In this document: piece by piece, positions 8,078-62,219 of the stretch
Numbering within the stretch: position 1 is the stretch's first letter
How the letters are laid out: each line of letters starts with the position of its first letter
Virus record (IMG/VR): IMGVR_UViG_3300042259_000159
Direction: 5' to 3' (one strand)
Source of the DNA: a virus
DNA length: 64,000 bases
Notes under the pieces: model-generated
The model's database searches: none
Seen by the model: only the letters and a program-made list of their open reading frames with translations
What the model was told of the DNA's origin: nothing
Position numbers and translations under genes: made by a program

Positions 8078-8479
8078 CTAGTTCTTGCGACACCAGATTC
8101 CGTCACAAGACGGAGGCTTATTCATCTGGTCAACGTGGAGAGACACACTCTCAATAGGGTATACAATCATGTTATCGTCCCCTTCTTCTTCCACATTGAG
8201 GTAGTAGGACGACTGTTTTTCAAAGTCAAAGTACCTCACTGATGTAACTTTCAGACAAACATGAGCGTTCTCTTTGTAGAAGAAGTCCCCAACATCAAGG
8301 TCGGTGAAAGCCCTCTTCAGGCTAGTATGTCGGCTAACAACTGCAACTCTGGTCATACTCTCTTCTCCTTCGTTTTCTTCCTTACCTTTCAGATAGGGAA
8401 TTTTCAATATTGCAAACACGCTGATACCCATAGCCGCTACCAGAAAGAAAGCTTCACTCCATAACATAGGAGGCTCCAT
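8078..8479 (-). CDS. hypothetical protein (N-terminal TM segment)
   Basis: ORF track. Hydrophobic FFLVAAMGISVFAIL. The start may be the second ATG at 8467 (GGAG upstream). Confidence 0.4.
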   Translation of the reverse strand: MEPPMLWSEAFFLVAAMGISVFAILKIPYLKGKEENEGEESMTRVAVVSRHTSLKRAFTDLDVGDFFYKENAHVCLKVTSVRYFDFEKQSSYYLNVEEEGDDNMIVYPIESVSLHVDQMNKPPSCDGIWCRKN

Positions 8480-30024: not shown

Positions 30025-30202
30025 ACTTAATCTAAGGCTTAAGCTTAACGATGTGGAGAGGGAGGCAGCCACCTACAGGGCGGTATGCAAGATGTTGTTT
30101 AATAGAATGTCTTCAGCAGGAGACCTTGCATTCATCCACAAAAAGGATCTTCAAAAAGCACTTGACAAATATAAGGAGGTATCACAAGATGCAAATATAT
30201 AA
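30014..30202 (+). CDS. hypothetical protein
   Basis: ATG at 30014 overlapping the cca 3' end. Confidence 0.4.
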   Translation: MANELNLRLKLNDVEREAATYRAVCKMLFNRMSSAGDLAFIHKKDLQKALDKYKEVSQDANI

Positions 30203-30608
30203 ACCGAGCCACTTCAGGATTGAAGAACTTGTTGACAAAAAAACTTTCAACGACAGAGGCGAGAAGGCTTGGCAACTTTTGGATGACAGGGCTTTGTTTG
30301 TTCTTCAGCTTCTCAGAAAGCGTTATGGACCCATTACAGTTAACAACTGGCTGTGGGGAGGGGACAGACAGTGGAGCGGCCTTAGAACAAAAGAGTGCAG
30401 TATTGGTGCAACATATTCTCAGCACAGGTTCGGAAGAGCCTTTGACTGTCTTATTAAAAACGCCACTGCCGAAGAAGTTAGAAAAGATATGCTTGACTTC
30501 TGGCCAAAACAGATGTATAACTTCCCTATCACGATGGAAGACGATGTAAGCTGGTTCCATTTTGATACGCGGCAACAGGAAAATCCAGTAACCATTTTTA
30601 AACCGTAA
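30189..30608 (+). CDS. peptidase M15 family cell-wall hydrolase (endolysin candidate)
   Basis: SQHRFGRAFD and WFHFD (H..D...H zinc ligand pattern); AAGGAGG RBS. Confidence 0.7.
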   Translation: MQIYKPSHFRIEELVDKKTFNDRGEKAWQLLDDRALFVLQLLRKRYGPITVNNWLWGGDRQWSGLRTKECSIGATYSQHRFGRAFDCLIKNATAEEVRKDMLDFWPKQMYNFPITMEDDVSWFHFDTRQQENPVTIFKP

Positions 30609-30874
30609 AGGCGAATATCTGCCTAGCGTAACTCATAGGATACATGGACTTCGCAAGTACAAGAATCAAATTAAAAAGGAACTTTAACTATGGATATAGC
30701 GGTATCACACAAGATACGACTGCCGTGGTTCCCCTCCAAATCCTTCTGTGCTAAATCTTAACGCCTGTGGACAGAATGACCTCTGTATCTACCAACCAAT
30801 GGAAGATATAAGTCAGCTGGTTGAAGCAGGAATTAAGTCCGGATTAATAGAAATTAATAGGAATTAAGGAGCAG

Positions 30875-31600: not shown

Positions 31601-31609
31601 GATTAATTT

Positions 31610-31647
31610 AAAAACCGCTTGACAAAATCAGGCGGTTTTTCTATTGT
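31610..31647 (+). promoter_or_regulatory. composite terminator hairpin / sigma70 promoter (AAAAACCGCttgacaaaatcagGCGGTTTTT; TTGACA-N17-TATTGT)
   Basis: The -35 hexamer lies in the loop of a U-tailed hairpin. Near-identical copy at 38080..38116. Confidence 0.55.
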
Positions 31648-31706
31648 GTTCCTACGGCAACGAGGAAAAGAACACAAATACGCAACAAACAAAAGGGGAA
31701 ATAAAG

Positions 31707-32493: not shown

Positions 32494-32928
32494 ATGACCG
32501 AAAACAATTGTACAAAGTTTCTTGCACGTGAGAAGTACGAGGAAGCATGGATTTGCATGATAACAGCACTGGAACATATTGAGAGTGCAAAATACCTTAT
32601 CGGGCTTTGTAACAGTGTGCATGTCGGCGATGCAACCTATAACCTGAATCGTGCCACCGATGATATGCAAACGGCACACAGTTTCTACAAAGAATTCTTC
32701 GATACTCTGACGATTGGTTGTGATGACGAGGATGAACAAAATGTTTATCAAAGTGAGGAAGAAATTAACGAGGCACTGTGTGACCTAGACATAATGGGGA
32801 TAGACAGTAAAACTGTATGCATTTCTTGTTTTTATTGTGGGGGTATTTGCCCCAAAGACCCCGTTAGTTGCAATCAAGCAACACATTTTTATAAGTTCCT
32901 TCACAAGGATACAGGAGAGCGAGCATGA
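32494..32928 (+). CDS. hypothetical protein
   Basis: ATG at 32494 (the track begins at a TTG at 32488). Confidence 0.45.
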   Translation: MTENNCTKFLAREKYEEAWICMITALEHIESAKYLIGLCNSVHVGDATYNLNRATDDMQTAHSFYKEFFDTLTIGCDDEDEQNVYQSEEEINEALCDLDIMGIDSKTVCISCFYCGGICPKDPVSCNQATHFYKFLHKDTGERA

Positions 32929-33263
32929 ACAAGTGTCAAGAAGAAATCCTTACTTTTGTTGTTGGGGTGGTTGCGGAGATGGAGCGTGAAACAGGAGCGG
33001 ATATTTTTGTAAGTTACTCTCCCCACGTGTCTTGCATCAATGTTAATTTCCACGCTAATAAGTGGATAAGTGGACATGGATCAGATTTTGATGTGGTGTT
33101 TTATCTTGATTCTGAAGAGTATGATGATATAGCTGAAAGTTTCCTGTCTCTGGAGAATGCTAGGGATTTGATTGAAAAGCATCAACAAGATACCCTGCTT
33201 AGAAAGCAAAAAGCCATTAAGGAACTTGAAGAGCAGCTTAAACGCCTGAAAGAAGAGCAGTAA
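32925..33263 (+). CDS. hypothetical protein
   Basis: ATGA overlap with the upstream gene; followed by a strong terminator. Confidence 0.45.
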   Translation: MNKCQEEILTFVVGVVAEMERETGADIFVSYSPHVSCINVNFHANKWISGHGSDFDVVFYLDSEEYDDIAESFLSLENARDLIEKHQQDTLLRKQKAIKELEEQLKRLKEEQ

Positions 33264-33270
33264 GTATTGA

Positions 33271-33295
33271 GGCCGGAAATAATCCGGCCTTTTTT
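33271..33295 (+). terminator. rho-independent terminator
   Basis: GGCCGGAaataaTCCGGCC followed by TTTTTT. Confidence 0.75.
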
Positions 33296-33377
33296 ACGTC
33301 TAAATCCAGAGGACTTTTTCATTTTAAAAGGTCTAGAGAGGTTTTTCATTTTGGGAGGTCTAAAGAACATTTTCAAT
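33288..33377 (+). repeat. 90-bp direct repeat, copy 1 (identical copy at 37862..37951)
   Basis: CCTTTTTTACGTCTAAATCCAGAGGACTTTTTCATTTTAAAAGGTCTAGAGAGGTTTTTCATTTTGGGAGGTCTAAAGAACATTTTCAAT is present at both sites. Confidence 0.9.
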
Positions 33378-33443
33378 TTACAACCAAAAGTAAAAAGTCT
33401 AGAGAACATTTTTAATTTGAGGTCTAAAGAGGATTTTCATTTT
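33297..33443 (+). repeat. array of five approx 23-bp iterons (G)GTCTA(A/G)AGA-N4-6-TTTT(C/A)ATTT
   Basis: Units start at approx 33297, 33330, 33357, 33397 and 33421. Confidence 0.7.
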
Positions 33444-33456
33444 CAGATTTTTGTAT

Positions 33457-33558
33457 GAAAATGATACTCATTATCACCGATAATGGTCGTTGAAAACGAC
33501 ATTCATTATCAACGATATTGATAATCATTTTCAATGATATTGAGTTTCATTATCAATC
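33457..33558. promoter_or_regulatory. cluster of Fur-box-like sites
   Basis: GAAAATGATACTCATTATC (33457-33475) matches GATAATGATAATCATTATC at 17/19. TGATAATCATTTTCA (33519-33533) matches the 7-1-7 TGATAATNATTATCA at 14/15. Additional CATTATCAA half-sites are present. Confidence 0.4.
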
Positions 33559-33828
33559 TAAATAGTAACTATTACTAATAATAAAAATTGTGCAGGGGCG
33601 GTTTATAATGGATCTTAACCATGTGCCGGAATGCCTTTGATTTTTTCCTCGCTGGCAAAGACAGAATATTAAAAATGCAAACGGCGGTCAAGCGGAAAAT
33701 GAAAAAATATTAAAAATATTTTTTCGGCTTGCCATATCATTATATAGACGCTATATCCATCCCATACCACAGACAATGAATGGAACGCGGAGGAATGGAG
33801 TTTTTATTAAAAATCGTCTGAAAAACAC

Positions 33829-33857
33829 TTGACAGTGATTCCGCTTTGTGTTTAGTT
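33829..33857 (+). promoter_or_regulatory. sigma70-type promoter (TTGACA-N17-TTAGTT)
   Basis: Read directly; precedes 33894..34043. Confidence 0.4.
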
Positions 33858-33893
33858 TTTCACCTACAAGAACACAAAAAAGAGGTAAAGAAA

Positions 33894-36492: not shown

Positions 36493-36552
36493 CTATCAAA
36501 AATAGTTAGCAATGTTTGAGAGGAAAGAAAAATAATTTTTTATAAAAACCGC

Positions 36553-36581
36553 TTGACAGGTGTAGGGCATATTTGTATGGT
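36553..36581 (+). promoter_or_regulatory. sigma70-type promoter (TTGACA-N17-TATGGT) overlapping inverted repeat GTAGGGCA...TGCCCTAC
   Basis: Read directly. Confidence 0.5.
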
Positions 36582-36614
36582 TGCCCTACAGACAACAAAA
36601 AAGGACGGTTAAAA

Positions 36615-37478: not shown

Positions 37479-37808
37479 ATGACCACAGTGAAAAGATTAC
37501 AGAAGCTGGTTGAAGACATTGCAAGAGACATTGAAAACGGCGTAATTGATTGCGAACCCGTGGACGGTGAAGAGCCTACGGCATTTGATTACCTACAAAA
37601 CGCACTTGCTATTGAGTACATTGTCAGCAGCAGGAAAGAATATCTTGGCGCACGCATCATGGTTGCATGTGGCGGACCTGATATCTGGATTAATACACGC
37701 ACAAACACTGTGGAAGGCTACTGGGGCTCTAATGCAGCCGTGGCCATGGCCTCGGCATTGTTCCGCCGTCACGGAAAAGCGCTGGAGGAATTATACTTGT
37801 GTAGTTAG
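37479..37808 (+). CDS. hypothetical protein
   Basis: ATG after AAGGAG. Confidence 0.45.
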   Translation: MTTVKRLQKLVEDIARDIENGVIDCEPVDGEEPTAFDYLQNALAIEYIVSSRKEYLGARIMVACGGPDIWINTRTNTVEGYWGSNAAVAMASALFRRHGKALEELYLCS

Positions 37809-37861
37809 GGGCTACGTTAAAATTAGCAAAAACTTCAAAAAAGGCGTTGACAAGGTTGACG

Positions 37862-37951
37862 CCTTTTTTACGTCTAAATCCAGAGGACTTTTTCATTTTA
37901 AAAGGTCTAGAGAGGTTTTTCATTTTGGGAGGTCTAAAGAACATTTTCAAT
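37862..37951 (+). repeat. 90-bp direct repeat, copy 2
   Basis: See 33288..33377; it also follows a terminator hairpin. Confidence 0.9.
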
Positions 37952-38087
37952 CCGATGCAGCCTTTGCCGCGTATAGCCGTGACCGCATTGGTTTGGATGG
38001 AGAACTGGAGGGATTGTATGCGTGTAAGCCTCCGCTAACACACATAAGGCTGCTTACAGTAAAAATAGAAAAACTATTCAAAACCGC

Positions 38088-38116
38088 TTGACAAAACCGG
38101 GCGGTTCTTCTATTGT
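38088..38116 (+). promoter_or_regulatory. composite hairpin / sigma70 promoter, second copy (AAACCGCttgacaaaaccgGGCGGTT; TTGACA-N17-TATTGT)
   Basis: About 45 nt near-identical to 31610..31655. Confidence 0.55.
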
Positions 38117-38157
38117 GTTCCTAACGAACACAAACACTCAACAAAGAGAGGTAAAGA

Positions 38158-38502: not shown

Positions 38503-38742
38503 TCAAAAAACCTCAAAACAACATAAATAACAGGAGCACACTATAACTGACCGCACATTCTTTATCCACCTTATATCCGGCCACGTTGCTACGCTCGAAG
38601 AGTGGAGGGCAGACTATAAGTCAATGGATGCAGAACTATGGCACGGCAAGCCCGCTGAAGAGTGCAACCCTGATGAATGGCTTAAAGACGGCCTCCTTGA
38701 GGAATATGAAGCGGATCCCAACGAATAAAGCAGTTACACCAC

Positions 38743-38768: not shown

Positions 38769-39136
38769 TATGCCTACTAGCGCCGTTATCAGGGTAACGG
38801 CAGGAATCAGCGGGAAACATGTATATAAGGAAAGAAAAACTAAAAGATAACCTAGGACATACGTAAGAGGTAAAAAGCATTAGAAGGCGCATAAGGGGCA
38901 CTAAATATGCCCCTTATTTGTTTGTGTGTCTAATAGGCTTTGTGTGTGCAAAAAGGCTTGTATAGCGGCTTTATCATGGAAGCCGCGCATACAGGCAAGG
39001 CTTTTAGCACTATATATGCACAGATACGGTGTATCCGTGAATATGGTTAATAATCTCTAAATACCTGCCCGAAAGATATGAAATATCTTGAGGGGGGAAA
39101 CACACAATAATCCTCCTGTCAAGTGTTACTGATTTT

Positions 39137-39273
39137 GAATATCATTATCAATGGAGATATTGTCATTGAACAGCATAACGCTGTTATACACACGGATCAA
39201 TTAATTCCCATCGATCAGCATTTCGCTGGTGCTGCTGGAATCAACACTTGTTGAGATAATGACATCCATTATC
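39137..39273. promoter_or_regulatory. Fur-box-like sites in the non-coding region
   Basis: GATAATGACATCCATTATC (39255-39273) matches the 19-mer at 16/19. GAATATCATTATCAAT lies at 39137-39152. Confidence 0.35.
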
Positions 39274-39302
39274 AATGCTGTTCAATGGCCGTTTTCAACG
39301 GC

Positions 39303-39322
39303 AATGTTTCACGTGAAACATT
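39303..39322. repeat. perfect 20-bp palindrome AATGTTTCACGTGAAACATT
   Basis: Self-complementary by inspection; flanked by hairpin GCCGTTttcAACGGC (39288-39302). Confidence 0.9.
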
Positions 39323-39526
39323 CCTGATCAGAATACTGGCAAGAAACATTGATAACGACAATCTTTATCAACGTATCTGGCGATCCTTTCAGGTTAACAC
39401 AAATCTGGAAGAAAGTAAAGTAATATAAATTTTAATAAGGGGTTGACATCTTCCTGATATTTTGATATTATAGAAAGAGAGGCGTATGGGGAGGGGGGAG
39501 GCCTTAAGCACCGGTATACTTATATA

Positions 39527-39576
39527 CCAAGTACCCCTATAGGTTCATGCCGGATATTTGCCCAAGTACCCCTATA
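39527..39576 (+). repeat. direct repeat CCAAGTACCCCTATA x2
   Basis: Copies at 39527-39541 and 39562-39576. A related TATACCAAGTA occurs at approx 20171. Confidence 0.8.
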
Positions 39577-39967
39577 ATGGTATACCGATATACTTATACA
39601 CACCATATCTGCACACAGAAGGTATAGGGGGATATTTCCTGCTAGGATATTTCCACACAAAAAGGGGGAGTATATGGGAGGGATATTCCTGAAGGGAATA
39701 GATATTTTAGACAGGTATATATATATTATCTCTATGCTATATATACTCTATATATGTATATTCCATATATACATATTTCTTCTTATTCTATTCTTCTATT
39801 TCTACTAATGAGATATATACATATTAGGACAGCATATGCATGTGTCTACATCACATGTAGACACATATATACACATTCCCTTTCCTAACGGACAGCCGTA
39901 TTATAACATATTTTTTGGATTTTGTCAAGAACTTTTTTGTATTTCACATGGAAAATATTTCATACCG

Positions 39968-40085
39968 GCTATTCCTTTTGGGAATAGCCTATTCCATTTT
40001 GGAATAACCATTCCTAGGGGAATAGCCTGTTCCCAGAGGGAACAGACATACCCGAAGGGAATAGATATGCCCATTGGAAATAGCA
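39968..40085. repeat. array of inverted repeats built on GGAATAGC / GCTATTCC
   Basis: GCTATTCCttttgGGAATAGC, CTATTCCattttGGAATAA, CATTCCtaggGGAATAG, CCTGTTCCCagagGGAACAG, GGGAATAGA, GGAAATAGC. Confidence 0.8.
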
Positions 40086-40187
40086 AAAGCCCACACACCT
40101 GTAAAGATATGTGGGCTGATAACATTAACAGTGTTAATAACATTAGCGAAGCTAATAATATTTTATCCTATCAATCAATACCTGTAG

Positions 40188-40418
40188 CTACGTGATCGAG
40201 GCAGAGCACCTGTGGTCGAGGTAGAACACCTTGCCAATGCAGAAGGTATGCCCTTCCTTCATAATGCGGAATGTTGCTTGCATGGGCACATTTACCTCCA
40301 CTACCCACTGGATGCCTTGTTCAGGCCAGAAACTCAAGCTGCCGTTAAACTCAAAAGGCTTTGCTTCACAACCCTTCACAGCGGTATTTATCTCTTCCAT
40401 ACCATCTTCACCAGTCAT
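40188..40418 (-). CDS. hypothetical protein
   Basis: ATGA overlap with the methyltransferase stop. Confidence 0.4.
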   Translation of the reverse strand: MTGEDGMEEINTAVKGCEAKPFEFNGSLSFWPEQGIQWVVEVNVPMQATFRIMKEGHTFCIGKVFYLDHRCSASIT

Positions 40419-48848: not shown

Positions 48849-51800
48849 CTAAATGCTTTTATCTACAAACTTTCTCTGTGGAAAATCAAATTCCCGCCTT
48901 GTTTTATTCCAAGCTTTTACGGGTGTAAAAAACCCAACAACCCTTGTCAGCTGTGTACTTATATCTTCCGAACATATGGGGCATGTACTGAAGGAACCCA
49001 TAGAGACATGGGAGTTGATACACTCAGAGTATACGGTATTAATGGCAAAATGTTCACATCCACAACCCAAAGCAAAACAGATAATTTTCTTGGCCTGCTC
49101 TCTTGTCAGCCTCTGCCCGACAGTGGCATGAACAATCCCCCCGCCTGTTAGGTTTTTAGTATATTCTCCGTCAATTCTGAGCCTGTCCCACAGAGATGCC
49201 TCTTCCCACAAAGGAACAAACTGGTTTGCATAGAGAGGGTATTCTATAAAAGTATCGCCGTGAATGATCTTATCTGCGCTGCAAACTTTTACAGCCATAC
49301 TCTCTGCTGGGATTTGCTCAATGTTGAAGACATATCCTGCGTTCTTCTTGGTATACAATCTAGCTTTTCTGTTAAGAAATGTCAAGATCTTTTTCTTCAA
49401 ATCCCCCTCAACACCGAACCTTTGTTTAAGAACCTTTTCACACTCGTAAAGACCAAGAATACCAAACGTTGAAAAGAGCCTGTTGAGGTCTATCCACCCA
49501 CGCGTTATAAAAGGCTGAAGACCTATTTGTTCAAGGACATGAATCAAGACCTTATGAGCAATCAGAATATCTTTAGCAGCCTCTACACGGTACGTGTATA
49601 TTTTCCAAAAATCATCAATACTCTCGGCCTCAATTGCCATCTTGTTGAAATTAAGAGTAACAACTCTATGGCTCCCGATGCTGGAAAGAACACCGGCACC
49701 GAAAGAATTGGAGGTGGATGCCACATCTAACATCTCTTCATCATTGATCAATCGGCAACAGCTAGCGATCTTTGTGCTCTCAGATGTGAAAATATTGTAG
49801 CGCGAAATGTCTCTATTAAGAAATATTTCCAAACTCTCTTCGTCTGCAAGGATGTAATCATCGCCGTCCTTAGTTTTTGAAATGTTCATCGTGCAAACAG
49901 GGAACCTGTAAGGCATCCCGTTATTTGAGGGATCTCCTTTATCAAAGATGTCTAGGAATATTTCCTGCAATTCAAAAACATAGTCAACACACTCTTCTAT
50001 ATCTACAACACCACCATCTGAAAACATCCACAAAAGATGTTCCTTTATGATGTACCTGAGTTTGTGTTTATCAAACACCGATACATTGGTAAAGGGACTC
50101 TCAACTCCGTCACGACTCAAATGGTTTACGCTGTGAATAAGCTGTTGAAACTCGTTTTCTATCTCTTTCCTCACAGCCTTATCGTTTTTAAGCACATCAA
50201 GGGGAACCTTATTCTTTATCATGAGAAGGTGAGCAACATCTATAAATACAGTACCTATGGCTAGAGCACCAGCAACATGCGATGACATTTGGTGGATTGT
50301 CTCACACAGGGCGGCAATATAACTATTAACTCTTTTTGCCGGTTTAGAGGGCAATACTCCAAAAGTTCTTCCTTCTGTAATGAGATTTGTTGCGTTTAAA
50401 GAATAACAATTATGTTGCACCATTCCGTTTGCATAAAAACGGCCCGTTGCTGTTGTCAAATCATATACGTCTTGAAGCTCCTCTCTAAGCTTTCTTGTAC
50501 TAGGAATGTCTTCAAGATTAAACCTGATGATTTTTACAACCCTGTTGCTTTCGCCCTTGGTGTTTGCTTTTTCATTATACTTATCATAGTCTTCTTTATG
50601 CATCTTCATCTTATCAGAAAGATCAACCATCTTATTCGTACTTGACGGGACAAAGGAAAGGGCATAAATCGAATTAGAAATATCACTCCCTTTTATCCTT
50701 TTTCTAAGGCATCGAATACCTTCAATGCCTCTAAGGACGTCATAAAGTGTGTTTATTACTGCCATAGACTGCAAACAAATCTCCACCCTGCCATTCTTTT
50801 TGTAGGTATATCCGTCCGCGTCTACAAGCCCCGCAACAAGTGCCTCTACAGAATCATTTGTCCAAGAGAGGATGTTCTTAGGAAGAACCTTTGTGAAGCT
50901 ATTTTCTTTGTTCCCGAAACCAAAAAAGGCACTTACAAGAAAATTCATATCATAAGAAGACCAATTAATCTGTCTCTCGACTTTATCACTGGGCTTAAAA
51001 AGATTCGCATCAGGAAACAAGTCTTTTATGATACTATAAATTCTTGAGTTATCAATATCGTTTTGATAAACACTGCAAAGCGTTCCCCCTCTTGTAAATC
51101 TGAAAGAGCCTTTTATGTCCTTACCGTTCATTACGCCATCATCAACACAATACCCTTCAAAGTTCCCATCACCAAGCATAAAGCCAAGAAGGTAGGCCAG
51201 CTTTTCTGGAACAATTATTGTTTTTTCCACGGAGGGCAAACAAGTCTCTGTCAAAACAGCATCCCCAACAGAAAGTTCTGAGGCTATTTTTTCAGTTCCA
51301 TCTTCCATATAGATTGGGTGGTTGTCTGTTACCAAAGCAAAGTGCCCTGCCTCTGTCTGATACAAAGAGAATCCTGTATCCGTTTTATGCTTGATAATAC
51401 GTTGTACAGCAACCCATCCATTGTTTGTATCCCAAACCTCTATATTAACTTTTTCACTCACATTGCAGGCCAACTTACCGGAACGACCTTTTGCGGTGTT
51501 CTTGTTAGTGATGTTCGCACTCACATTATTACGCAGCATTGCTGTTGTAATCTCTAGATCTCTTGTAAGGCCTTTTGTGTTAATTTCCTCATGCGTACCC
51601 CTATTTTCGGAGTGTATTGCAAACATATTGAAAAGCTTTTTAAGAGGAATACAAATAATCTCTCCGTTAATTCTGACAAAAACAGGCGTGTTTCCATAAT
51701 ACGAATATGGAAGGTTTAGCTTCGTGCTGTCGGAGATGGGAAGACTGAAATCCAACATTTCTCCTATAAGCCTTTTAGCCCTCTTCTTGCCGTAGAGTTC

Positions 51801-52184
51801 CTTCATAACACGGTAGAGGAAATCGTACCCTGCAATTTTTTTCTGGGGGGCACTTGCCTCACTCTGTATTCCGGCAATTGTCTTCTCATTCTTATTAGCA
51901 TTGTCATCAATAGAGACATCATTAATGTTTGCATTTAATTGTTTTTGAAACATCTTGAGAAAGTCTGTATTGTCCTGCGAAAGACCATGCAGACGCATAA
52001 GTTTTTCAGCTTTTGTATCAATCTCTTCTTGAGAAAGGGTTGTTTTACGAGAAAGATTCCTTTTCAAAGCCTTAAGCATCTGTTTCCGTGTGTATTCAAT
52101 CTCAGCATCATTTGTAAAAGATGAAGAAAAACCTTTAGCTATGCTATTCAAAGCAGTAAACTCCTTCTTTTGTAAGTTTAACAT
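48849..52184 (-). CDS. nrdD: anaerobic ribonucleoside-triphosphate reductase (class III), intein-containing
   Basis: C-terminal CPICS Zn site and glycyl-radical region TRVVGFFTPVKAWN. Likely start MLNLQKKEF at 52184, overlapping the nrdG 3' end. A 432-aa insert carries intein blocks. Confidence 0.8.
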   Translation of the reverse strand: MLNLQKKEFTALNSIAKGFSSSFTNDAEIEYTRKQMLKALKRNLSRKTTLSQEEIDTKAEKLMRLHGLSQDNTDFLKMFQKQLNANINDVSIDDNANKNEKTIAGIQSEASAPQKKIAGYDFLYRVMKELYGKKRAKRLIGEMLDFSLPISDSTKLNLPYSYYGNTPVFVRINGEIICIPLKKLFNMFAIHSENRGTHEEINTKGLTRDLEITTAMLRNNVSANITNKNTAKGRSGKLACNVSEKVNIEVWDTNNGWVAVQRIIKHKTDTGFSLYQTEAGHFALVTDNHPIYMEDGTEKIASELSVGDAVLTETCLPSVEKTIIVPEKLAYLLGFMLGDGNFEGYCVDDGVMNGKDIKGSFRFTRGGTLCSVYQNDIDNSRIYSIIKDLFPDANLFKPSDKVERQINWSSYDMNFLVSAFFGFGNKENSFTKVLPKNILSWTNDSVEALVAGLVDADGYTYKKNGRVEICLQSMAVINTLYDVLRGIEGIRCLRKRIKGSDISNSIYALSFVPSSTNKMVDLSDKMKMHKEDYDKYNEKANTKGESNRVVKIIRFNLEDIPSTRKLREELQDVYDLTTATGRFYANGMVQHNCYSLNATNLITEGRTFGVLPSKPAKRVNSYIAALCETIHQMSSHVAGALAIGTVFIDVAHLLMIKNKVPLDVLKNDKAVRKEIENEFQQLIHSVNHLSRDGVESPFTNVSVFDKHKLRYIIKEHLLWMFSDGGVVDIEECVDYVFELQEIFLDIFDKGDPSNNGMPYRFPVCTMNISKTKDGDDYILADEESLEIFLNRDISRYNIFTSESTKIASCCRLINDEEMLDVASTSNSFGAGVLSSIGSHRVVTLNFNKMAIEAESIDDFWKIYTYRVEAAKDILIAHKVLIHVLEQIGLQPFITRGWIDLNRLFSTFGILGLYECEKVLKQRFGVEGDLKKKILTFLNRKARLYTKKNAGYVFNIEQIPAESMAVKVCSADKIIHGDTFIEYPLYANQFVPLWEEASLWDRLRIDGEYTKNLTGGGIVHATVGQRLTREQAKKIICFALGCGCEHFAINTVYSECINSHVSMGSFSTCPICSEDISTQLTRVVGFFTPVKAWNKTRREFDFPQRKFVDKSI
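50409..51704 (-). mobile_element. intein with LAGLIDADG homing endonuclease domain inside NrdD
   Basis: Block A SYYGNTPVFV (Ser1), block B LVTDNHPIY, LAGLIDADG motifs LAYLLGFMLGDGNF and LVAGLVDADGYTY, C-terminal FYANGMVQHN followed by extein Cys (CYSLN). Confidence 0.8.
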
Positions 52185-52659
52185 AATTATTATTATAAAG
52201 TTCTTGGTTAGACGAACCAAGTACGAGTTTTGTCCTTTGCCCTTTTGTTGTATCTGACTGGTGCAGTTCTTTTATATACTCTCCTGTTTTTATAAATTTG
52301 AAACCGTTAAGATTAAGGTATTTAACAGTGTCAATATCGTATCCAGTATAAATACATATGTTAAAACACCCACCGTATTGTTCTAAGAACTGTGCTGTAA
52401 ACCCTCTGTTGCAGGAGGCTAGCGGATCTCCACCAAGAAGTACAATATTATTTGTGCGGTATTTTAAGGTCTCCTGTTTACAATGGTTGTAGAAGTCTTC
52501 AATGGAAAATTCCACACCACCCTGATATTCAGGGTTTTGCAGGGAGGGGTTATGACACCCCTTACAGGAAAAATCACACCCACACATAAAAAGACTTACT
52601 GCCCACCCATCCTTTGAGGGGTAGTCTGTAAATGTCATCTCAGAACCTGCAAATCTCAT
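52144..52659 (-). CDS. nrdG: anaerobic RNR activating enzyme (radical SAM)
   Basis: CGCDFSCKGCHNP (CxxxCxxC cluster). Confidence 0.8.
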   Translation of the reverse strand: MRFAGSEMTFTDYPSKDGWAVSLFMCGCDFSCKGCHNPSLQNPEYQGGVEFSIEDFYNHCKQETLKYRTNNIVLLGGDPLASCNRGFTAQFLEQYGGCFNICIYTGYDIDTVKYLNLNGFKFIKTGEYIKELHQSDTTKGQRTKLVLGSSNQELYNNNYVKLTKEGVYCFE

Positions 52660-55122: not shown

Positions 55123-55206
55123 TGGTAGGAGAAGAGAGATTCGAACTCTCAAGGAATAATCCGTCGAGGCTTAAACTCGATGTGTTTACCATTTCACCAT
55201 TCTCCC
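55123..55206 (-). tRNA. tRNA-Leu (anticodon UAA), type II with long variable arm, CCA encoded
   Basis: GGGAGAA/TTCTCCT acceptor, anticodon arm TCGAG-TTTAAGC-CTCGA, T-arm GAGAG-TTCGAAT-CTCTC. Confidence 0.75.
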
Positions 55207-55245
55207 GTATTTTTTATCTACCATTCCGCCATTCCCGCATTTATT

Positions 55246-55323
55246 TGGTACCCACTGTGAGATTCGAACCCACACTAATCAGTTTCTAAGACTGATGCCT
55301 CTGCCAAGTTGGGCTATACCAGT
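55246..55323 (-). tRNA. chimeric / possibly defective tRNA (anticodon UAG, short variable loop)
   Basis: Good D, anticodon (TCAGT-CTTAGAA-ACTGA) and T arms. However, 5' acceptor ACTGGTA pairs poorly with the local 3' strand AGTGGGT and well with TGCCAGT at 54617..54646. Confidence 0.45.
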
Positions 55324-56519: not shown

Positions 56520-56790
56520 TGTTGATACCTTATAGGTTCAGCCCTACCAAGGGCACTGCGGCTTAAGTGGGTTGGTTGGTGCAGATTGTGAACGTACCCC
56601 CGCCTATAGAGGCGGAAGCTTCCTGCTTCAGCGAGAACAGCACCAGTAACTCCGAAGAGTTGTGGCGAATTACACTCTCTCCACAGGCGTAAATTCCCGT
56701 GCGACCCACGGTACTTTATGAGTTACGCTAGGCAGATATTCGCCCAGCTTCTTCTCTAATATTTATTGCAGCGTTCTTGTCACGGTTATG
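56520..56790 (-). ncRNA. expected TnpB omega-RNA (reRNA) region
   Basis: Located by position at the 3' end of tnpB plus downstream sequence. Hairpins CCGTGGGTCGCACGG, ACTCttcgGAGT and CCGCCtctataGGCGGGGG are present; the exact ends are unknown. Confidence 0.3.
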
Positions 56791-57976
56791 ATGACTGCCA
56801 CACTTAAGGCAATCCCATTCCCGCACAGACAAGTCTTTGGTATCCTTGTTCTGGTAGCCACAGACATGGCATAGCTGACTGCTTGGATACCATTTGTCTA
56901 TCTTGATAAGTTGCTTACCCTGCCATGCAAGTTTGTATTTCAGCATACTTGTGAACATGCTCCAGCCGTTGTCGGATATGGATTTACCAAAGTTGAACTT
57001 GCCACCCTTCTTTCGCTTCGCCATGTCCTTTACGCTAATGTCCTCTATGCCAATCACATCATAGCGGTCTGCAAGATAACGAGCTTTCTTATGCAGGAAG
57101 TCGCGGCGTTGATTAGCAATTTTCTCATGGAGTACAGCCAAACGTAGTCTTTGTTTATTCCTATTACGGCTCCCTTTTTGTCTCTTGGAGAGTTTTCTTT
57201 GTGCCTTGATCAATCTCTTTTCGGCTTCCCGTAAGAAATTTGGATAATCGGCGTTGTCCTCATCGGAAGCAACATACATCCCGTGCATAGCAAAATCCAA
57301 TCCAAGAAAATTCTTCGGTATGATGGGAAGTATTTGGTTTTCATACTCCACCAAAATACTAATATAGTATTTTCCTGACGGTGTTTTACTTATGGTTACA
57401 GTCTTTATGGTGCTATTCTCCATCAATGGACGATGCAGACACAGCTTTACCCAACCTATTTTCGGCAGCTTGACTTTGTTTCCCTCGATTCTTACAGAGC
57501 CATGTTGGTTGTTCGTAGAATATGAAGCATGACCCGCTTTCTTCGACTTGAAGCGTGGCTTGCAAAAATGCTTCCTATTGCTCCAAAAGTTGTTATACGC
57601 CTTGTTCAGGTTTATTTGGGCATTGGCGAGAGCAAGGCTGTCAACCTCTTTCAGCCAAGGAAACTCTTTCTTGTACTGTGCAGGTGTGTTGTTCAGCCTC
57701 TCTCCTGTTTCCTTATAGTGATCAAGACGATCTCCAAGCATCTTGTTATAGATGAATCTGGCACTGCCGAAAGTCTTGGCAAACATAATCTTCTGTTCAA
57801 TTGTCGGGTAGAGTCTATATCGGTATGCCTTATTCACTATAATCACCTGCCTTGATTTTCTATGTATTTACGAATTGTCTCAAACGGAGCAATTATCTGG
57901 CTCAACTACTTACGTAAATTCGCTAGACACACCTTCATCCCCCACCTTAGAGGTGGAGGGCTTCTGGCGGGTTAGG
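56560..57976 (-). mobile_element. IS200/IS605-family TnpB-only element (boundaries approximate)
   Basis: tnpB is flanked by similar subterminal hairpins: LE CCCTCCACCtctaaGGTGGGGG (57939-57960) and RE CCGCCtctataGGCGGGGG (56597-56614). No tnpA is present. Confidence 0.55.
56728..57846 (-). CDS. tnpB: TnpB (OrfB_IS605) RNA-guided nuclease
   Basis: N-terminus AYRYRLYPTIEQKIMFAKTFGSARFIYN. RuvC-like GLDFAM / IGIEDISVKDM / RDKNAAINI. Zn-ribbon CHVCGY...CLKCGSHHNRD. Confidence 0.9.
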   Translation of the reverse strand: MIIVNKAYRYRLYPTIEQKIMFAKTFGSARFIYNKMLGDRLDHYKETGERLNNTPAQYKKEFPWLKEVDSLALANAQINLNKAYNNFWSNRKHFCKPRFKSKKAGHASYSTNNQHGSVRIEGNKVKLPKIGWVKLCLHRPLMENSTIKTVTISKTPSGKYYISILVEYENQILPIIPKNFLGLDFAMHGMYVASDEDNADYPNFLREAEKRLIKAQRKLSKRQKGSRNRNKQRLRLAVLHEKIANQRRDFLHKKARYLADRYDVIGIEDISVKDMAKRKKGGKFNFGKSISDNGWSMFTSMLKYKLAWQGKQLIKIDKWYPSSQLCHVCGYQNKDTKDLSVREWDCLKCGSHHNRDKNAAINIREEAGRISA

Positions 57977-58022: not shown

Positions 58023-58109
58023 TGGTGCCCAATGCAGGACTCGAACCTGCACGCCATTTCAGGCAGGAGGGCTTAAACCTCGTGTGTCTACCAATTCCAC
58101 CAATCGGGC
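58023..58109 (-). tRNA. tRNA-Leu (anticodon UAA), type II, CCA encoded
   Basis: Close to E. coli leuZ-type layout: GCCCGAT..GTGGAATTGGTAGACAC..TTTAAGC..TGCAGGTTCGAGTCCTGCATTGGGCACCA. Confidence 0.8.
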
Positions 58110-58118
58110 TAAAATCTT

Positions 58119-58202
58119 TGGTGCCTCAGACAGGATTCGAACCTGCACGGATCTCTCCACTTGGTCCTAAGCCAAGCGTGTCTGCCATTCCACCACTGAG
58201 GC
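58119..58202 (-). tRNA. tRNA-Leu (anticodon UAG), type II, CCA encoded
   Basis: GCCTCAG acceptor, CTTGG-CTTAGGA-CCAAG, long variable arm, GCAGGTTCGAATCCTGT. Confidence 0.8.
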
Positions 58203-62051: not shown

Positions 62052-62080
62052 TTGACAAATGGTTAAAAGTGTGTTATAAT
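62052..62080 (+). promoter_or_regulatory. consensus sigma70 promoter (TTGACA-N17-TATAAT)
   Basis: Read directly; followed at 62103-62125 by the AT-rich Fur-like site AAATGATAATGAATTTCATTGTC. Confidence 0.6.
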
Positions 62081-62219
62081 AGGTTTTGAATTAATAATTA
62101 AAAATGATAATGAATTTCATTGTCTTTTGTAATCTTCTAAGATGTCTTAGATAGGCATCCGAAAAGTATAGGGGAGTTTCCCTCCTTTTCTCCCCTATAA
62201 AATATTAACAGGAGGTAAT

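Follow-up and report, generated by a model that had tools for sequence, protein, structure and literature searches.

The DNA analysed here, a stretch of 64,000 nucleotides from a virus (IMG/VR record IMGVR_UViG_3300042259_000159), is referred to as the window. The same phage is represented by the 91.6-kb IMG/VR contig IMGVR_UViG_3300042267_000152, whose positions minus 32000 give those of the window. The phage encodes a set of replication proteins (primase-helicase, family A DNA polymerase and ligase), NrdD with an intein, NrdG-like and ThyX proteins, a CCA-adding enzyme, several DNA methylases and eight tRNAs. Its DNA polymerase is only 38-40% identical to the polymerases of Vibrio phages PWH3a-P1 and ICP1, no nucleotide match to the phage was detected among INPHARED phages (near and distant) or PLSDB plasmids, and the CCA-adding enzyme used as a query against IMG/VR retrieved only itself. 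The phage TnpB protein is 94-96% identical to copies from Phascolarctobacterium and 85-94% identical to copies from Mitsuokella, Selenomonas and Megasphaera; from these relatives and the anaerobic ribonucleotide reductase we infer a host among the gut or rumen Negativicutes, with Phascolarctobacterium or another Selenomonadales-type bacterium as the likely candidate. The tnpB gene (56728-57846) belongs to the IS605 family and is flanked by duplicated tRNA-Leu(taa)/tRNA-Leu(tag) pairs (55123-55314 and 58023-58202); a 28-nt exact copy of its 3'-end region is found 26 kb away at 30610-30637, directly after the gene at 30051-30608, and contigs of sibling samples stop near window positions 59.2-59.6 kb. 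The nrdD gene (48849-52220, - strand) has an apparent intein interruption with an Intein_splicing match at residues 258-604, and an RlaP-like gene with a LAGLIDADG match is carried by the relative L049.

The + strand gene block at 21-39 kb consists of the replication genes followed by approximately 8 kb of small ORFan genes, and the iteron array described below lies inside this block. It is located in a conserved 630-bp spacer (33264-33893) that contains, in order, the intrinsic terminator T1 of the gene at 32925-33263, the iterons, a cluster of Fur-like boxes, a 43-bp palindrome and the promoter of the next operon. T1 folds at -17.6 kcal/mol (z = -5.3) and is followed by T6. A second terminator, T2, found after the gene at 37479-37808 (designated X1), folds at -17.3 kcal/mol (z = -5.1). 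An exact direct repeat, reported in the initial annotation as 90 bp with its second copy at 37862-37951, is real and measures 91 nt at 100% identity, the second copy being 37861-37951; the observation that both copies lie directly 3' of strong intrinsic terminators also holds (z of about -5 and T6 after each). The coordinates of the features are listed in Table 1.

Table 1. Features at the two repeat loci, in window coordinates
Feature	Position	Strand	Description
T1, intrinsic terminator of gene 32925-33263	33269..33295	+	stem GAGGCCGG/CCGGCCTT, then T-tract
91-nt repeat, copy 1	33287..33377	+	T-tract and units 1-3, minus the last 2 nt of unit 3
Iteron array, copy 1	33297..33445	+	five same-orientation 22-nt units and linkers, GC 30%
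Partial box A ahead of unit 1	33298-33304	+	GTCTAAA
Unit 1, degenerate	33304..33325	+	ATCCAGAGG-ACT-TTTTCATTTT
Unit 2	33331..33352	+	GTCTAGAGA-GGT-TTTTCATTTT; 0 mismatches
Unit 3	33358..33379	+	GTCTAAAGA-ACA-TTTTCAATTT
Unit 4	33397..33418	+	GTCTAGAGA-ACA-TTTTTAATTT
Unit 5	33422..33443	+	GTCTAAAGA-GGA-TTTTCATTTT
Fur-box-like palindrome cluster, overlapping, AT-rich	33456..33557	.	25% GC; starts 13 nt after unit 5
T2, after gene 37479-37808	37837..37869	+	stem-loop with TTGACA, flanked by A6 and T6
91-nt repeat, copy 2	37861..37951	+	units at 37905 and 37932, degenerate unit 1 at 37878
X1 second-allele 3' remnant	37952..38028	+	DAAFAAYSRDRIGLDGELEGLYAC, about 25 codons; starts exactly at the end of the 91-nt block

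Five units on the same strand (+) occupy 33304-33443 and follow the 22-nt consensus GTCTARAGA-N3-TTTTYAWTTT. Each is built of box A (G-TCT-AR-AGA, a small dyad), a fixed 3-bp spacer and box B, the T-tract TTTTYAWTTT. The earlier description of five imperfect units was correct in their number, and its 23-bp unit with an N4-6 spacer is replaced by a 22-nt unit in which the internal spacer is fixed at 3 nt. Units 2 to 5 match the consensus perfectly, and the first unit, which is degenerate, has 3 mismatches to it. Spacing is thus fixed within units and variable between them, the start-to-start distances being 27, 27, 39 and 25 nt (the third interval is 38 in L052/L053); the 27-nt period was also picked up by TRF. 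Counting both copies of the repeat together, there are 8 matches to the motif in the window versus 0.32 expected from shuffled sequences, and none of 100 shuffles reached 8. The search for further copies proposed at the outset yielded none beyond the two loci: a weight-matrix scan of the 64 kb detected no weaker unit copies elsewhere, the exact unit pattern does not recur in the 91.6-kb source contig, and no similar repeats are present in the divergent region at 20-21 kb.

The array is non-coding, in agreement with the initial annotation, since no open frame across it is kept among strains: a 1-nt deletion at 33392 in the long linker of L052/L053 disrupts both ORFs that span the array, and the 39- and 25-nt spacings break any repeat reading frame, which together rule out a protein-coding repeat. 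The array does not fold more stably than shuffled sequences on either strand (z = -0.17 and +0.30), and there is no Rfam match at this position.

Six contigs from samples other than the window's own were reached through homologues of both flanking genes (L049, L050, L051, which is identical to L022, L052/L053, L054 and L060), and variability was counted as variable alignment columns across six distinct strains. Within the units, only 1/105 positions outside R is variable, together with 2 of the 5 R positions. The linkers between units vary at 5/39 positions (13%) and the upstream gene at 66/339 (19%; 33% of third codon positions and 13% of first and second positions). Eight of 33 columns vary in the T1 region, where the stem is kept and the changes fall in the loop, in the length of the T-tract and at the two bases that separate stop codon and stem. 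In the rest of the spacer 17-27% of columns vary: 31/115 in the Fur-box-like cluster, which additionally has whole-unit indels, and 34/200 in the next 200 nt downstream. For the lower variability of the units, Fisher's test gives p = 9e-8 relative to the gene, p = 1e-4 relative to its first and second codon positions and p = 0.006 relative to the linkers. Units 2 and 3 are invariant in all strains; the sole between-strain changes in units 4 and 5 are G/A at 33402 and A/G at 33427, both R positions, which toggle between A and G as they do between units inside one genome. The sole core change, 33304 A>G in L060, brings unit 1 closer to the consensus. Every strain that spans the array has five units, in contrast to the adjacent Fur-like cluster, in which units are gained and lost.

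The freezing of the units relative to their own linkers and to the upstream gene implies that the 22-nt units are selected as DNA words, and copy 1 is evidently under strong purifying selection, as judged from relatives that are all close (at least 85% nucleotide identity), i.e., from a shallow tree with about seven independent sequences. The flanking proteins are similarly restricted in range, the upstream 112-aa protein having three homologue clusters, all at least 86% identical, and the downstream 60-aa protein four, at least 79% identical. The strains are mosaic (the Fur-like cluster is 99% identical in L050 and 79% identical in L052), and a recombinational sweep of the array may have contributed in part to its uniformity.

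The gene preceding copy 2, X1, belongs to a widespread family of phage proteins of about 108 aa with at least 170 homologues at approximately 50-60% identity. Its AlphaFold model (pLDDT 86.5) consists of a helix, a five-stranded meander and a second helix; X1 belongs to no Pfam family and gave no significant sequence or fold match in the PDB. Considered as a candidate binder of the array, it was discounted as evidence for DNA binding because it matches no DNA-binding fold, and a "DNA-binding" label near its Vibrio-phage homologue belongs to the neighbouring gene. Compared with L057 and L058, the allele in the window has a compensated frameshift (-4/+4 nt), by which 14 residues close to the C-terminus are replaced.

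Copy 2 is unlikely to be an assembly artefact, because assemblies of at least three sibling samples independently yielded the same arrangement, one of the contigs being a 1.65-kb one that extends across copy 2, and because typical sequencing reads are longer than 91 nt. Both of its edges are informative. The left edge falls in the T-tract of the T2 stem-loop, where the 9 nt GCCTTTTTT, which are the last 9 nt of T1 and the left end of the 91-nt repeat, constitute the only homology between the otherwise unrelated T1 and T2. The right edge lies inside unit 3, 2 nt short of its end (...CAATCC instead of ...CAATTT), and is continuous with the last 25 or so codons of a second X1 allele; this remnant is 83-87% identical in nucleotides to the corresponding 3' gene ends in L057 and L058, and only a 22-nt patch of it matches the window's own X1. 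In L057 and L058, which are diverged (about 82% identity over X1) and were recovered from the samples that also gave L049 and L050, both with copy 1, there is no copy 2 after the homologous gene. X1 of L057 is followed by a stem-loop with TTGACA, then T5 and then TATTAT, i.e., a composite terminator/promoter, and in the window the iteron block stands in place of this TATTAT -10; in L058, X1 is joined directly to the sequence corresponding to window position 38506.

Since it is absent from two diverged relatives that do have copy 1, cut within unit 3 and placed on a gene remnant, copy 2 is best described from its junctions and distribution as a strain-specific recombination scar (illegitimate or inter-strain) and not a conserved partner of copy 1. 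The perfect identity of the two copies had been taken as a sign of selection or of recent conversion. It is explained by the near-invariance of the array in every strain and not by either process acting on a two-copy system, and it carries no date because units 1-3 are 100% identical in the window, L049, L050, L051 and L054 even though the flanks differ by about 12%. Identical copies within a genome therefore need not mean recent duplication or paired function; here the identity follows from extreme constraint on one element together with recombination between strains. Copy 2 probably arose through an illegitimate recombination event, for which an exchange between related genomes or between concatemer copies is the simplest setting, with a deletion accompanying or following it. 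A simple tandem duplication with subsequent deletion was rejected as the whole origin, because the remnant is an L057-type allele diverged from the window's X1. Copy 2 would probably still bind the same protein as copy 1.

The proposal that the two copies bracket the small-gene island is accurate insofar as they enclose 4.57 kb with about 12 ORFan genes, and inaccurate as to the extent of the island, the ORFan region really running from about 30.8 to 38.8 kb. This region is hyperplastic, with gene-sized indels between relatives. Promoter cassettes at 31608-31654, 36542-36588 and 38077-38123, in which the -35 hexamer TTGACA is embedded in a terminator-like stem-loop (T2 is built alike), adjoin these indels. 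Recombination within the 91 nt of homology that copy 2 provides could delete the 4.57-kb segment. Domains of integrases, resolvases or transposases were not detected in the island, and excision or inversion between the copies is consequently unsupported beyond ordinary homologous recombination of 91-nt repeats.

Immediately downstream of the array, the 135 bp at 33446-33580 (25% GC, the fourth lowest 150-nt stretch of the window) consist of Fur-box-like palindromes. Seven sites in the window, all non-coding, match the 19-bp Fur-box consensus GATAATGATAATCATTATC (7-1-7 form TGATAATNATTATCA) with three or fewer mismatches versus 0.06 expected. The best sites (17/19 matches) are at 33457 and 33514, and others are at 39131-39149, 39255-39273, 39351-39369 and 62106-62124; the last of these begins 24 nt past the -10 element of the strong promoter at 62053-62081, which is an operator position. 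The cluster differs between strains by whole-unit indels and is 79-99% identical; it is possibly part of the same control region as the array. A tblastn search of the whole window with E. coli Fur revealed no Fur homologue. Two of the Fur-like boxes, 39255 and 39351, are placed symmetrically (about +/-46 bp) around a perfect chromosomal-type parS site, TGTTTCACGTGAAACA, at 39305-39320, and no ParB was found among the scanned window proteins. The parS site is inside a 1.3-kb repeat-rich non-coding region (38.9-40.2 kb) with further repeat families (GGGAATAGCC-type, GGTATACTTATATAC and ATATATACATATT); two large gene blocks converge at 38900-40200, strong promoters face each other there (39443-39471 on the + strand and 39928-39900 on the - strand), and the cumulative GC skew peaks in the same region. 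The conserved palindrome in the array's own spacer (33689-33731, CAAGCGG...GAAAAAATATT-AAA-AATATTTTTTC...GGCTTG) is overlapped in its left arm by a - strand promoter-like site at 33691-33663.

The units behave like protein-binding iterons, as originally suggested: they are non-coding, non-structured, set in one orientation and far more constrained than the linkers or the gene. Because they are conserved as DNA words, recognition by a sequence-specific protein is the simplest reading, and the array probably comprises sites for one such DNA-binding protein, probably encoded by the phage. The five sites would be occupied cooperatively by this protein to form a nucleoprotein complex situated just after T1 and beside the 100-bp AT-rich Fur-box-like cluster. 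Scans of 70 window ORFs against Pfam and/or PHROGs revealed no Rep, initiator, ParB or Fur-like gene; the island proteins are all ORFans in both databases. On balance, we consider it rather probable that the locus is a selected protein-binding array with copy 2 as a scar, a judgement that does not extend to a role of the array in replication origin function.

By analogy with iteron-containing origins, the array and its AT-rich flank might tentatively be assigned as an origin-type or control element, an assignment we hold to be possible though short of probable. The motif is unique in the genome, the array is downstream of the replication genes, and five 22-nt direct repeats in a single orientation are what would be expected of Rep/O-type iterons (three or more repeats of 17-22 bp). 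The spacing of 27/27/39/25 bp, however, does not correspond to integral helical turns, unlike that of classical 22-bp-phased iterons, and no recognisable initiator gene adjoins the array; the proteins neighbouring it gave no Pfam or PHROGs match to Rep, initiator or winged-helix families, and a novel ORFan initiator is possible. In addition, the cumulative GC skew turns at about 20 kb and 39.5 kb and not at 33 kb, and the repeat-rich non-coding region that contains parS looks more origin-like.

Control of transcription is a rather unlikely alternative, in which the units would serve as operators or activating sites for a phage regulator of a promoter in the Fur-like cluster, or as a roadblock for transcription past T1. 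The array does have a terminator on one side and a new transcription unit on the other, the Fur-like cluster contains weak promoter-like hexamer pairs 10-90 bp downstream of the array (33455-33484 and 33490-33519 on the + strand, 33534-33505 on the - strand), and box B read on the - strand at 27-nt spacing gives -35/-10-like pairs (33376-33348 and 33349-33321); the Fur-like box at the strong promoter 62053-62081 also has an operator position. Against these points, the local promoters score only 9-10 of 12 and 27 such sites are expected in the region by chance, about 385 bp separate the array from the closest strong promoter (-35 at 33829), the motif is present at no other promoter in the 64 kb, and no regulator gene was found. 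It is doubtful, and less probable still, that the whole spacer 33264-33893 is a phage control hub joining a phage iteron-binding protein to host regulators. If it were, the hub would tie replication or early-to-middle expression to host iron status and ParB in a large virulent-type phage of anaerobic gut Negativicutes, with the iteron complex as the phage-encoded part of the switch. The Fur-like boxes and parS hint at a phage that reads host regulators, which would be of wider interest if true, and this neighbourhood may be more surprising than the array itself.

We regard it as very unlikely that the array has no function, being a decaying minisatellite whose apparent conservation stems from recent recombinational spread among close strains. 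The closeness and mosaicism of the strains and the small number of independent sequences (about seven) leave some room for such a spread, but a sweep would not leave the linkers varying at the background rate (13%) and the units at 1% inside one 149-bp stretch; nor do in-unit substitutions confined to R or directed toward the consensus, and a unit number held at five beside a cluster that gains and loses units, agree with decay. Action at the RNA level appears highly improbable, whether as a sponge for a protein or of Hfq/CsrA type, as a ToxI-like decoy or as an antisense to gene 32925-33263. Purine-rich GAGG motifs with U-rich tracts are repeated on the + strand, and the weak - strand promoter-like sites would yield an antisense transcript, yet GAGG is absent from units 3 and 4, the array directly follows a strong terminator without an upstream promoter, neither strand has structure beyond that of shuffled sequences or an Rfam match, and the irregular unit spacing is unlike that of processed tandem RNA repeats. 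Repeats of the type III toxin-antitoxin (ToxI-like) kind were rejected because of the unequal spacing, the position after a terminator and the lack of any toxin family downstream. The least probable reading is one of res/att-like sites, in which a recombinase would act on the two direct copies, set on either side of accessory genes, to excise or shuffle the 4.57 kb of ORFans between them. Multi-sub-site arrays are typical of res sites, but the island has no recombinase domain, copy 2 is truncated, fused to a gene remnant and missing from relatives that keep copy 1, and copies in direct orientation cannot be transposon ends.

Searches with the motif recovered only the source contig in IMG/VR, zero matches among 185,579 reference genomes of GTDB, and in JGI metagenomes one true relative (L022) together with about 36 unrelated matches that share a 9-mer by construction. 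Two unrelated arrays with a GGTCTARAGA core were observed. One, in the 20% GC contig L046, has at least nine copies of 25-nt units (850-1300 on the + strand and 250-470 on the - strand), and the other, at 8300-8380 (- strand) in the 107-kb contig L041 (also in L044), has three copies of 22-nt units beside four CGAACGTTC repeats. None of these contigs has detectable homology to the window phage, and the shared core is probably a coincidence of the search pattern. Full-text literature searches with the box sequences returned only primers and other unrelated uses. As far as sequence goes, the array has no relative outside one shallow phage lineage and is, in kind, an ordinary iteron-like binding-site array.

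The array constitutes a tractable cis-element in uncultivated large gut phages whose early region contains only ORFans. With its five near-identical sites, the 149-bp array used as bait should recover its binder directly, which would provide a function for at least one ORFan and could locate an origin or a master switch.

Among known systems, the PeSL (promoter-early stem-loop) cassettes of T4-type phages drive modular shuffling, a documented case of repeat-mediated rearrangement in the ORFan regions of large phages (PMC2839356, PMC4122927). The window resembles them in having short repeated regulatory sequences at the gene borders of a hyperplastic ORFan region that act as recombination points, and its PeSL-like cassettes are those at 31608, 36542 and 38077 and T2. 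The 91-nt block differs in being joined through a 9-nt microhomology on one side and without homology on the other, instead of by exchange between two PeSL elements, and the phage is not T4-like; with neither a TTGACA/-10 pair nor a stem-loop of its own, the block was rejected as a PeSL-type mobile cassette. In the literature on ICP1 the origin is mapped by coverage only, and no comparable motif was found there.

The non-coding origins of phages of lactic acid bacteria (Sfi21, phi31 and the sk1 "per" elements) resemble the present locus in being clusters of direct and inverted repeats in AT-rich non-coding DNA downstream of replication genes. They have no sequence similarity to the array, and the window phage differs from these phages in being large and in having a T7-like replisome. 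The lambda origin consists of four O-protein sites and an AT-rich region. Compared with lambda ori, the plasmid P1, F and pSC101 origins and T4 oriE, the array has a spacing of 25-39 bp instead of approximately 22 bp and is without a recognisable initiator or a skew turn; it is like them in consisting of several 17-22-bp direct repeats in one orientation, with an AT-rich flank, a non-coding location and a motif unique in the genome. In Bacillus phage SPP1, the G38P boxes of oriL and oriR are found at two distant loci, one of them inside the initiator gene, and both are conserved and functional. The window phage resembles SPP1 in carrying the same block of binding sites at two loci and in having a probable Firmicute-type host, and differs from it in the second locus, a strain-specific and truncated one fused to a gene remnant.
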